Assembly: GCF_017348835.2 (NCBI RefSeq)
Contig: NZ_CP071375.1
From: Escherichia coli
GTDB taxonomy: Bacteria > Pseudomonadota > Gammaproteobacteria > Enterobacterales > Enterobacteriaceae
Strand: one strand, 5' to 3'
Length of the DNA: 64,000 nucleotides
The translations under genes and the position numbers were made by a program. Below, in pieces: positions 6,389 through 47,021 of this stretch. Every line of letters starts with the position of its first letter. Within the stretch, counting starts at the first letter, position 1. The notes under the pieces are model-generated. The model did not search any database, was not told the origin of the DNA, and worked only from the letters and a program-made list of their open reading frames with translations.

Positions 6389-7267
6389 ATGAGCAAAAAG
6401 CAGAGTTCCACCCCACACGATGCGCTGTTCAAACTCTTTTTACGCCAACCGGACACGGCACGCGATTTTCTTGCGTTTCATTTACCGGCACCCATTCACG
6501 CGCTCTGTGATATGAAAACCCTCAAGCTGGAGTCGAGCAGCTTTATTGATGACGATCTGCGTGAAAGCTATTCCGACGTGCTGTGGTCGGTGAAAACGGA
6601 ACAAGGACCAGGATACATCTATTGTCTGATTGAACATCAAAGCACCTCAAACAAACTGATCGCATTTCGCATGATGCGCTACGCCATTGCCGCAATGCAA
6701 AACCACCTGGATGCCGGACACAAAACGTTGCCGATGGTAGTGCCATTGTTGTTTTATCACGGTATTGAAAGCTCCTATCCCTATTCGCTGTGTTGGCTGG
6801 ATTGTTTCGCCGATCCCAACCTGGCAAGGCAGCTTTATGCCTCTGCATTTCCGCTGATTGATGTCACCGTCATGCCTGATGATGAAATCATGCAGCACCG
6901 ACGCATGGCGCTGCTGGAGTTAATTCAAAAACATATTCGTCAACGCGACCTGATGGGGCTGGTAGAGCAAATGGCCTGCTTATTAAGTAGTGGATACGCT
7001 AATGACAGACAAATCAAAGGGCTGTTTAATTACATCTTGCAAACCGGCGATGCGGTACGTTTTAACGATTTTATCGACGGCGTTGCCGAACGTTCACCGA
7101 AACACAAGGAGAGTTTAATGACTATTGCGGAAAGATTGCGGCAGGAGGGGTTTCAGAAAGGTATACGTGCTATTGCCAAAACCATGCTGGATGCCGGAGT
7201 CCCTCTTGAGGACGTTCTGCGATTTACCGGGCTGTCAGAGGAAGAATTGGCTGCGGCGAACCAGTAG
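6389..7267 (+). CDS. rpnA: Rpn-family recombination-promoting nuclease / transposase-like protein (YhgA)
   Basis: 292-aa ORF at the expected position after feoC; matches recollection of YhgA. Confidence 0.8.
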
Positions 7268-7283
7268 ACACTATCCCCTGCTT

Positions 7284-7329
7284 AAGTGCTACTTTATGCT
7301 ATCTTGCATGTAACACAAAGTAGCACTTA
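7284..7329. promoter_or_regulatory. 13-bp perfect inverted repeat (taagtgctacttt / aaagtagcactta); candidate operator for the downstream toxin-antitoxin pair, or yhgA terminator
   Basis: Arms at 7284-7296 and 7317-7329 separated by 20 bp; sits 10 bp upstream of the antitoxin start codon. Confidence 0.45.
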
Positions 7330-7338
7330 GGAACTGAT

Positions 7339-7608
7339 ATGCAGACAGTGAAATTACGGCAACAAGGAGGAGCCATGATCGTTACTATCCCACGAGATCT
7401 TGCCACCGATCTTGGCTAGTCACCGGGCACAGAGCTTACCGTGGAGAAAAAGGGCGATAGCGTTAATTTACGCGCAACCGGGCACAAACCGCGTGGGCGT
7501 CTTACCGTCGCGCAGTTGTTGAGCCAGATCGATGAAAGCGAAATTACGCAGCTAAATCAGTCCACAGAAGGATGGGCTGAAGGGAAAAAAGGTAATGAAG
7601 CATGGTAA
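7339..7608 (+). pseudogene. PemI/MazE/ChpS-like (AbrB/SpoVT fold) antitoxin interrupted by an in-frame TAG at 7417-7419
   Basis: Hand translation MQTVKLRQQGGAMIVTIPRDLATDLG*SPGTELTVEKKGDSVNLRATGHKPRGRLTVAQLLSQIDESEITQLNQSTEGWAEGKKGNEAW; SD agga upstream of ATG 7339; 3' end overlaps toxin start by 7 nt. Confidence 0.7.
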
Positions 7609-7970
7609 AGGCACGGACGCCACATCGTGGTGAGATCTGGTATTTTAACCCTGATCCGGTTGCCGGGCATGAACTTCGGGGTCCACATCATTGCATTGTG
7701 GTAACGGACAAAAAACTCAACAATGTTTTAAAAGTTGCTATGTGCTGCCCGATTACAACAGAGGCAAATGCAGCACGTTCCACAGGGGTGACGGTGAACG
7801 TCCTCCCCCATGATACGCAAACCGGTAACCTGCATGGCGTTGTGCTCTGTCACCAGCTAAAAGCTGTCGATCTTATTGCCCGTGGCGCTAAATTTCATAC
7901 CGTTGCCGATGAAGCATTGATTAGTGAGGTGATCGGTAAACTGGTGAATTTAATCGACCCACAACAGTAG
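7602..7970 (+). CDS. PemK/MazF/ChpB-family endoribonuclease toxin
   Basis: 122 aa; RGEIWYFNPDPVAGHELRGPHHCIVV...CCPITT...LHGVVLCHQLKAVDLIAR parallels MazF/ChpBK/PemK; no counterpart at this position in my recollection of K-12. Confidence 0.8.
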   Translation: MVKARTPHRGEIWYFNPDPVAGHELRGPHHCIVVTDKKLNNVLKVAMCCPITTEANAARSTGVTVNVLPHDTQTGNLHGVVLCHQLKAVDLIARGAKFHTVADEALISEVIGKLVNLIDPQQ

Positions 7971-7984
7971 CCCTGACTTATCAC

Positions 7985-9476
<1,492 letters not shown>

Positions 9477-25307: not shown

Positions 25308-26150
<843 letters not shown>

Positions 26151-45541: not shown

Positions 45542-45643
45542 CTTTATCTCCTGCGATCTTTAGGCAGTGATTAGAACGGATTATTTGCAGGTAAATTTGC
45601 GAGAGAGATCAAAAAGATGAAGAGAGGAGAAAAGAGAAATGAA

Positions 45644-45667
45644 TTACTGCGAGCAAGCTCGCAGTAA
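45644..45667 (-). terminator. Hairpin downstream of gntU
   Basis: ttactgcgagc-aa-gctcgcagtaa palindrome followed on the minus strand by a T-rich tract. Confidence 0.5.
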
Positions 45668-45680
45668 TTTGTCGCAGTAA

Positions 45681-47021
45681 TTAACTCAACAGCTGGAACG
45701 CAATCATCCCAACGATGGCACCAACAGTGCCGAGGATGGTTTCCATCATGGTCCAGGTTTTCAGCGTTTCGGCTTCGGTCGCGCCGGTAAATTTACCGAA
45801 CAACCAGAAACCGGCGTCGTTAACGTGGCTGACAACAATCGAACCACCGGCGATACAAATCGACAGCGCCGCCATTTGCGCACCGGAATAGTTCAGTTGT
45901 TCAATGACCGGCATCACCAGCCCCACCGCCGTTAAACAGGCAACGGTGGCAGACCCCTGAATGATGCGCACTGCAGCTGCCAGCACGAAGCAGGTGATAG
46001 CAATCGGCAGGCCCATGCCGGTTAACGCTTCGCCCAGTGCCGGACCTACGCCAGAGTCAACCAGCACCTGTTTGAACACGCCGCCCGCACCAATCACCAG
46101 CAGAATGATCCCCGCCGGTTGCAGCGCGTGACCGCAAATCTCCATCACTTTGTCTTTTGGCATGCCCTGACGCATTGCCAGACCGTAAATCGCCACCAGA
46201 CAAGCAACCAGAATCGCGGTAAACGGATGACCAATAAACTCGAACCATTCGTAAGCGGTAGAGCCTTCCGGCACAAAACGCGCGGCAATGGTTTTCAGCC
46301 CCACCAGCACCAGCGGCAGCAGGATCAGCGACAGGCTGAATCCGAAGGACGGCATTTTGCCTTCGCCGAGATGCGGCTCGCTGATGTCGTCAGGAATATG
46401 CAGCTCAACGTAACGGCTGATGAAGTTACCCCACAGCGGCCCGGCAATAATCATTCCCGGAATTGCCGCACACAGGCCAATCAGGATCATCCAGCCAAAA
46501 TCGGCGTTCATCTGCGATGCCAGCAGCATTGGCGCTGGCCCTGGCACCAGGAACGCCGCCGCTGCCGCCACGCCTGCGAATAATGGGATTACCAGCTTCA
46601 CCAGGTTCGTACCGGTGTGGCGCGCCATTGAAAAAGCAACGCTAATCAGCAGAACAATCGCCACTTCAAAGAACAGCGGTAGCGCACAGACCAGCCCCGC
46701 AAGGCCGATGGCATAATGCGCGCGGCTGTGACCGAAGGATTTGAGCATTTTGACGGCAATCTGATCGACTGCGCCGGTTTCATGTAAGATCTTGCCAAAC
46801 ATAGCTCCCAGGGCGACAACCACCGCCAGGAAGCCGAGGGTGCCTCCCATCCCTTTTTCCATCGTCGCTGCGATTTTATCGAGCGGCATACCGGAAAAAA
46901 GGCCAGCCCCCATGGACACCACCATCAAAGCCAGGAAAGCGTGCATACGCGCCTTCATGACTAAAAACAGCAGCAGTAAAACAGACCCTACTGCTGTTAA
47001 AACAAGCGTTAATGTAGTCAC
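45681..47021 (-). CDS. gntU: Low-affinity gluconate transporter
   Basis: 446 aa GntP-family permease, paralogous to gntT. Confidence 0.92.
   Translation of the reverse strand: MTTLTLVLTAVGSVLLLLFLVMKARMHAFLALMVVSMGAGLFSGMPLDKIAATMEKGMGGTLGFLAVVVALGAMFGKILHETGAVDQIAVKMLKSFGHSRAHYAIGLAGLVCALPLFFEVAIVLLISVAFSMARHTGTNLVKLVIPLFAGVAAAAAFLVPGPAPMLLASQMNADFGWMILIGLCAAIPGMIIAGPLWGNFISRYVELHIPDDISEPHLGEGKMPSFGFSLSLILLPLVLVGLKTIAARFVPEGSTAYEWFEFIGHPFTAILVACLVAIYGLAMRQGMPKDKVMEICGHALQPAGIILLVIGAGGVFKQVLVDSGVGPALGEALTGMGLPIAITCFVLAAAVRIIQGSATVACLTAVGLVMPVIEQLNYSGAQMAALSICIAGGSIVVSHVNDAGFWLFGKFTGATEAETLKTWTMMETILGTVGAIVGMIAFQLLS

Follow-up and report, generated by a model that had tools for sequence, protein, structure and literature searches.

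The window analysed here is a stretch of 64,000 nucleotides from an Escherichia coli chromosome, the segment 7200–8020 of which shows 100% identity to two strains from pigs, PE164 and F2_81. The genes of the region are, in order, feoB, feoC, yhgA/rpnA, the two genes of a toxin–antitoxin cassette, and bioH. The yhgA/rpnA gene (6389–7267, plus strand), which encodes the recombination-promoting nuclease RpnA, was identified by its open reading frame, by a match to the Pfam family Transposase_31 with an E-value of 8e-92, and by the RefSeq annotation of the identical strain PE164. It is the upstream neighbour of the regulatory element described below and lies outside it. The 716-bp cassette (7268–7983, plus strand) was delimited by alignment with the empty site of strain GF4-3, and spans the whole gap between the stop codons of yhgA and bioH, the latter of which is located on the minus strand (7985–8755).

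The cassette is formed by a small antitoxin gene positioned directly upstream of a toxin gene, and the stop codon of the former overlaps the start codon of the latter in the sequence ATGGTAA. The AbrB/MazE-type antitoxin gene (7339–7608, plus strand) begins with an ATG at 7339–7341, ends with a TAA at 7606–7608, and is a pseudogene in the window. RefSeq labels it AbrB/MazE/SpoVT, and the repaired protein contains an AbrB/MazE swapped-hairpin domain, the match to which is marginal (PF04014, 25.1 bits versus a cut-off of 24.7). The PemK/MazF-family toxin gene (7602–7970, plus strand) is an intact open reading frame of 122 amino acids with a PemK/MazF (CcdB/MazF-fold) domain (PF02452, E-value 3.9e-19, 69.3 bits versus a cut-off of 23.1). 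The nearest solved structure to the toxin is that of Kid from plasmid R1 (1m1f, E-value 1.6e-16), and the antitoxin has no match among solved structures at E-values of up to 1. As judged from these sequences, the module is a type II toxin–antitoxin system composed of a PemK/MazF toxin, a putative endoribonuclease, and an AbrB/MazE antitoxin. The toxin scores below the NCBIfam equivalog cut-offs of ChpB (61.7 versus 129), MazF (43 versus 120), and Agrobacterium MazF (91.7 versus 150), and the antitoxin below those of MazE_PemI (16.1 versus 50) and Agrobacterium MazE (35.8 versus 130). Because the cut-off of no named equivalog (PemI/PemK, ChpS/ChpB, MazE/MazF) is reached, the pair represents a separate, unnamed subfamily. 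Literature searches for this cassette using yhgA/bioH, O145/PemK, and PemIK/Xenorhabdus returned no relevant paper.

A perfect 13-nucleotide inverted repeat is located upstream of the antitoxin start, as had been reported in the first-pass annotation of the window. The left arm, TAAGTGCTACTTT, occupies positions 7283–7295, and its exact reverse complement, AAAGTAGCACTTA, positions 7317–7329. The annotation had placed the right end correctly at 7329, but the left arm starts at 7283 rather than at 7284. The spacer between the arms is 21 nucleotides long instead of 20, and the repeat ends nine rather than ten nucleotides (7330–7338) before the ATG. The motif ttgcat, described as part of the spacer, is indeed there, at 7304–7309. 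When two mismatches are allowed, the arms extend to 19 nucleotides (7283–7301 and 7311–7329) and are 89% complementary. In dinucleotide-shuffled windows, perfect inverted repeats that combine arms of 13 nucleotides or more with a spacer of at most 40 nucleotides are expected 0.03 times per window and occurred in 3 of 100 shuffles, while the real window contains two of them. The rarity of such repeats in the shuffled sequences makes a chance origin unlikely, and we consider the repeat real. A search for a third copy of the arm across the window returned a single match with two mismatches, at position 25468, which is at chance level. The other perfect inverted repeat of at least 13 nucleotides in the window is located at approximately 45640–45668 (AATTACTGCGAGC aa GCTCGCAGTAATT). 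An incomplete third copy, TGTCGCAGTAATT, adjoins it at 45669–45681, and no T-run follows.

At a query coverage of at least 80%, 43 of the 5426 complete E. coli genomes carry the cassette, and many of the carriers belong to the Shiga-toxin lineage O145:H28. The remaining E. coli genomes match only the yhgA and bioH ends. In GF4-3, the closest strain with an empty site, 26 unrelated bases separate the yhgA stop from the bioH stop, and the repeat is absent. In contrast, the repeat is present in all eight cassette alleles that were read, that of the window and seven others from O145:H28 and other strains. These seven alleles are 95–97% identical and encode an intact antitoxin of 89 amino acids. 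They have G at position 7296, where the window has A, and the second of the heptamers described below reads GTGCTAT in them; the G7296A change is specific to the window lineage. The arms of the alleles with G7296 are perfect over 16 nucleotides (TAAGTGCTACTTTGTG at positions equivalent to 7283–7298 and CACAAAGTAGCACTTA at 7314–7329) and enclose a spacer of 15 nucleotides, with strain A35 differing at one outer base. Comparison of the alleles identifies the 13-nucleotide repeat of the window as a one-base-degraded copy of the ancestral 16-nucleotide repeat. The repeat belongs to the cassette and not to yhgA. The alleles are 95–100% identical to one another, and conservation within E. coli is by itself uninformative, for which reason distant homologues were needed. 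The sequence CAGTAG occurs at both ends of the cassette, in the yhgA stop region and in the toxin stop region. The yhgA/rpnA allele beside the cassette is approximately 94% identical to that of most E. coli (90–95% in 4513 records, at least 99% in 3), which suggests that the whole segment is a divergent or imported haplotype.

Relatives of the cassette are distributed across the Enterobacterales. A tblastn search of plasmids with the antitoxin returned 48 records with 39–57% identity, from Pantoea, Rahnella, Serratia, Erwinia, Arsenophonus, and others, and a scan of one genome per species added 35 further loci with antitoxin identities of 37–74%. Nearly all of about 40 plasmid and chromosomal loci share a common layout, positioned at a fixed distance from the antitoxin ATG. 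The layout can be divided into two GTNNNAC heptamers 10 bp apart, which form site L, a TGnTAnnnT element, another two heptamers 10 bp apart, which form site R, and the sequence GGAGG followed by the ATG. The family consensus is AAAGTGTGACTTTGTGTnACTTnGTGnTAnnnTnnGTGTnACTAAGTTACACnnnGGAGGnnnTATG, the parts of which are GTGTGACTTTGTGTnAC, TGnTAnnnT, GTGTnACTAAGTTACAC, GGAGG, and ATG. The element between the sites is TGnTAnnnT in 26 of 32 loci, and its shorter form TAnnnT is found in 31 of the 32. In four loci (L010, L011, L013, and L033) exactly one promoter was called in the 500-bp segment of each locus, at the homologous position. These promoters have a 16-bp spacer, a TG before the -10 hexamer located between the sites, and a -35 hexamer in or beside site L. 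The homologous -35 sequence is TTGACT in Serratia, TTGCCA in Rahnella, and GTGACT in Erwiniaceae. Equivalent paired sites around a TG-extended -10 element accompany homologous cassettes of other genera with antitoxin identities of 40–74%, among them those carried by Serratia, Rahnella, Pantoea, and Erwiniaceae plasmids. The gene upstream of the sites varies: it may be co-directional, divergent (L010 and L018), or not annotated within 500 bp (L011 and L012). The occurrence of the element in all three of these contexts excludes a role tied to the upstream gene.

Three loci deviate from the common organisation and look like decayed or rearranged copies. The Pantoea dispersa plasmid pLsch (L017, 501–773) carries an antitoxin homologue that has neither heptamers upstream nor an annotated PemK toxin downstream, and a RelE/ParE toxin gene is located approximately 230 bp downstream of it. 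In Ca. Pantoea varia (L050) the antitoxin has 82 amino acids and no toxin open reading frame was found, and Ca. Fukatsuia symbiotica (L053) retains a 37-amino-acid antitoxin stub, also with no toxin open reading frame.

In the window, site L (7286–7302) is composed of the heptamers GTGCTAC (7286–7292) and ATGCTAT (7296–7302), which are 10 bp apart and correspond to GTGTGACTTTGTGTnAC of the family consensus. Site R (7310–7326) is inverted relative to site L and is composed of GTAACAC (7310–7316) and GTAGCAC (7320–7326), with the same 10-bp distance. A TG-extended -10 element, TGCTATCTT, is predicted at 7297–7305 of the plus strand, with the hexamer TATCTT at 7300–7305, and overlaps the inner-left heptamer. 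Symmetric and repeated sites, the four heptamers around TGCTATCTT, thus overlap the predicted promoter directly upstream of the antitoxin gene, as expected for an operator. The position homologous to the -35 hexamer (7278–7283, plus strand), 16 bp upstream of the -10 hexamer, reads CTGCTT and matches the consensus at two of six bases. Transcription is predicted to start at 7311–7313 of the plus strand, approximately 7 nucleotides past the -10 hexamer, from the position of which it was derived. With a start at approximately 7312, the cassette mRNA would carry the right arm of the repeat only. The Shine-Dalgarno sequence AGGA (7329–7332, plus strand) is positioned 6 nucleotides before the ATG and overlaps the final base of the right arm with its initial A; the homologues have GGAGG there.

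A scan of positions 6900–8100 for consensus promoters and terminators called nothing. The promoter of the window was missed because CTGCTT at the -35 position is too poor for the 9-of-12 rule of the scan, and was placed by homology to the loci in which the scan does call a promoter. Promoters with a TG-extended -10 element can function with a poor -35 hexamer. The motif ttgcat was considered as an alternative -35 hexamer and rejected. The candidates for the -10 hexamer 16–18 bp downstream of it (TTAGGA, CTTAGG, and TAGGAA) are poor, transcription from there would strip the Shine-Dalgarno sequence from the transcript, and the region is the most variable part of the family alignment. The predicted promoter element is TGCTATCTT at 7297–7305 and not ttgcat.

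Covariation was found between the outer 12 bp of site L and those of site R: among 26 distinct site pairs, 84.8% of cells are paired. The covariation score of 0.247 compares with 0.130 in column shuffles, none of 500 of which reached 0.247, and with at most 0.105 in controls with slid partners. The main switch in the arms is between CT/AG, found in E. coli, Klebsiella, Serratia, and Rahnella, and TG/CA, found in Pantoea and most others. Such covariation of the arms is expected both for an operator and for an RNA stem. The arms also track the N-terminus of the antitoxin. The N-terminus MQTVK.RQQGGAMIVTIPR is paired with the heptamers GTGCTAC/GTAGCAC, whereas ..T[KR]LRQQGGAVVLTIPS is paired with GTGTGAC/GT[CT]ACAC. 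[quoted passage not shown] Furthermore, site R is a direct rather than inverted copy of site L in Pseudocitrobacter (L022/L023) and Erwinia typographi (L027/L034). In these loci, the sites are located at about -65 to -15 from the antitoxin ATG, both genes are intact, and the would-be arms are complementary at only 10 of 17 and 9 of 17 positions. Because site R is direct, no stem can form there, while the protein site is preserved.

The suggestion of the first-pass annotation that the repeat is a candidate autoregulatory operator is supported by its linkage to the cassette, the homologous paired sites, the covariation, and the tracking of the antitoxin N-terminus. The anatomy of the element, its conservation, its covariation, and its independence of genomic context are direct observations, and the binding of proteins, the repression, the transcription start, and the co-repression by the toxin are inferred. 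With considerable confidence, we interpret the inverted repeat as the operator of the cassette's own promoter, in which paired antitoxin sites would bracket the -10 element. Two heptamers in direct orientation (site L) and two in the opposite orientation (site R) would bracket and partly overlap the -10 element. In intact cassettes, dimers of the AbrB/MazE-type antitoxin most likely bind to both sites, with each heptamer presumably contacted by one dimer. Toxin dimers that bridge the antitoxin dimers probably strengthen the binding, as in the Kis-Kid and MazE-MazF systems. The bound complexes would mask the segment between the -35 and -10 hexamers and the start site, exclude RNA polymerase, and thus enable negative autoregulation. 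The cassette mRNA, starting at approximately 7312, would contain the right arm only, and no hairpin would be involved.

The repeat could instead act in RNA. A stem-loop formed in yhgA read-through transcripts, or in a cassette leader that is longer, would influence how stable the mRNA is, how it is processed, or how the antitoxin is translated. Transcripts carrying both arms are plausible, since there is no terminator between yhgA and the cassette, and the Shine-Dalgarno sequence of the antitoxin abuts the right arm. The segment 7262–7345 folds with -25.1 kcal/mol (z-score of -3.0 relative to shuffles), as any long inverted repeat would, and the covariation of the arms is compatible with a stem. 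The commonest arm mismatches are G.T and T.G (37 of 104), which an RNA stem would tolerate, and the excess of which could also be explained by a G/T-rich motif. However, with a conserved TG-extended -10 element located between the arms, the left arm is expected to be missing from RNA that the cassette transcribes from its own promoter. Conservation across genera is strong for the arm sequences themselves and not only for their pairing, and the inner heptamers are mostly unpaired: two of their pairs lack pairing in 16 and 21 of the 26 cells, respectively. The flipped site R of Pseudocitrobacter and E. typographi also argues against a stem. Rfam searches at permissive thresholds returned only models of eukaryotic miRNA hairpins, with 17–19 bits versus gathering scores of 47–90. 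We regard a function as an RNA stem-loop as unlikely.

The first-pass annotation had also offered an intrinsic (Rho-independent) terminator of yhgA/rpnA as the alternative to an operator. The repeat is located just past yhgA, the stop codon of which is 16 nucleotides upstream, and the RNA can fold as described above. Nevertheless, the alternative is not borne out: the stem is AT-rich, with 4 G/C pairs in 13, the loop has 21 nucleotides, the tail is GGAACTGATATG instead of a T-run, and the scan called no terminator. Cassette-free E. coli strains have yhgA and lack the repeat, some of the homologous repeats have a divergent gene upstream or none annotated within 500 bp, and the sites are direct in two lineages. 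These properties make a terminator highly improbable. The position of the repeat 16 bp inside the left cassette junction, beside the gene of a recombination-promoting nuclease, could also mark it as an insertion relic, a terminal repeat or recombination site with no regulatory role. We give this explanation next to no credence: neither the right junction nor any other part of the window has a matching copy, the match with two mismatches being at chance level, and the same architecture is maintained at a fixed distance from the antitoxin ATG on plasmids and chromosomes with unrelated flanks. The operator of the cassette promoter is the reading that we retain.

Type II toxin–antitoxin operons are as a rule preceded by palindromic operators, and the element described here is an ordinary, uncharacterised example of a well-known operator class. 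The closest system is parD (kis-kid)/pem (pemI-pemK) of plasmids R1/R100, in which an antitoxin of the AbrB/MazE fold likewise accompanies a toxin of the PemK fold. The parD system of R1 has two symmetric regions of approximately 18 bp to which Kis dimers bind; one of them overlaps the extended -10 element, and the other is located upstream near the -35 hexamer (PMC1865072). Kid does not bind DNA itself, but enhances the binding of Kis to an extent that depends on the ratio between Kis and Kid (PMC1865072). Here, a TG-extended -10 element is similarly surrounded by two sites of 17 bp, each composed of two heptamers, and region I of parD, GTTATAT-TTAA-ATATAAC, is also composed of two GTnnnAY-type heptamers. 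The systems differ in their motifs, which are GTGCTAC/GTGTGAC here and GTTATAT in parD, and in the distance between the sites, which is 7–19 bp here and 33 bp in parD. Furthermore, the -10 element is positioned between the sites or overlaps the inner-left heptamer here, whereas that of parD is inside one palindrome.

The mazEF operator contains three adjacent sites for MazE dimers (PMC4333400). Like this "cab" operator of E. coli, the element, with its predicted binding, has several adjacent sites for AbrB-type dimers that overlap a promoter and a toxin that would modulate the affinity (PMC4333400). The three sites of mazEF form a 47-bp operator centred on ATATAT with two promoters, whereas here four heptamers in two pairs are arranged with twofold symmetry, and the toxin, as noted above, scores well below the MazF equivalog cut-off (43 versus 120 bits). 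In a survey of MazF-family modules, Chopra et al. (2013) described a conserved two-block motif, a gapped repeat of approximately 10–12 bases with a 4-base palindrome, immediately before 76 of 79 modules of the AbrB type (PMC3879964). Going by that description, their motif represents the same general phenomenon as the heptamers phased by 10 bp. It is portrayed there as a logo of the generic AbrB set, and the portrayal does not include the four-heptamer layout, the position of the -10 element, the specificity classes, or the flipped sites (PMC3879964).

A more far-reaching proposal, which we put forward tentatively as plausible rather than probable, is that the cassettes form an uncharacterised PemK/MazF subfamily, distributed over plasmids and chromosomes of the Enterobacterales, with a modular operator of four GTNNNAC heptamers phased by 10 bp. 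Its two specificity classes, the CTAC type and the TGAC type, would have co-evolved with a few N-terminal residues of their antitoxins, inversion of the downstream site would be tolerated, and in the E. coli, Klebsiella, and Serratia branch the operator would be compacted, with one heptamer doubling as the TG-extended -10 element. If this is true, the repressor and sigma-70 would read the same bases in that branch, and the family would provide a natural system for studying the DNA-recognition code of AbrB-type antitoxins. The impact on general biology is small, and the element behaved as expected in every computational test run. The value of the analysis is in documenting the control region of a rare chromosomal cassette and in assembling about 40 operators of two specificity classes for the recognition of DNA by AbrB-type antitoxins, which is structurally poorly understood.

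In the strain of the window, the antitoxin gene is interrupted by an in-frame TAG (7417–7419) at codon 27, which leaves 26 residues, and RefSeq records an "internal stop" in PE164. The stop codon replaces Trp27, which is invariant in ten homologues, and the antitoxin is truncated, the case that the first-pass annotation had considered. Its corollary, that the occupancy of the operator would be altered, is sound, because the AbrB-type DNA-binding domain cannot form from a stub of 26 residues. In this strain the operator is probably empty, the weak, -35-poor promoter would be unrepressed, and the element cannot perform its presumed function in this genome because its cognate repressor is truncated. 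PE164 contains a single match to the cassette in megablast, a near-identity search that is blind to diverged homologues, so that the repressor cannot come from a second, near-identical copy. The change G7296A affects the base of the inner-left heptamer that immediately precedes the TG of the -10 element. It was considered as a disabling mutation of the operator, which is not supported: A is found at this position in three other natural operators among the 26 distinct ones aligned.

The strain represents a natural case of an intact-looking toxin gene combined with a dead antitoxin and a presumably unrepressed promoter, which raises the question of how the toxin is tolerated. The toxin of the window differs from those of all other E. 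coli alleles read by the substitutions Y30H, S52T, and G54E. Tyr30 is present in all 41 other toxins of the family that were extracted, and the neighbouring His29 would align with Arg29 of E. coli MazF, a catalytic residue. The toxin of the window may be attenuated, with Y30H as a candidate cause. Toxin expression could also be lowered by the early stop codon, through polarity or because translational coupling is lost. The C-terminal part of MazE/Kis-type antitoxins is the region that neutralises the toxin. An in-frame, GTG-initiated open reading frame of 55 amino acids (7441–7608), located past the premature TAG and with no obvious Shine-Dalgarno sequence, would encode this part of the antitoxin, and its product, if made, could neutralise the toxin without binding DNA.
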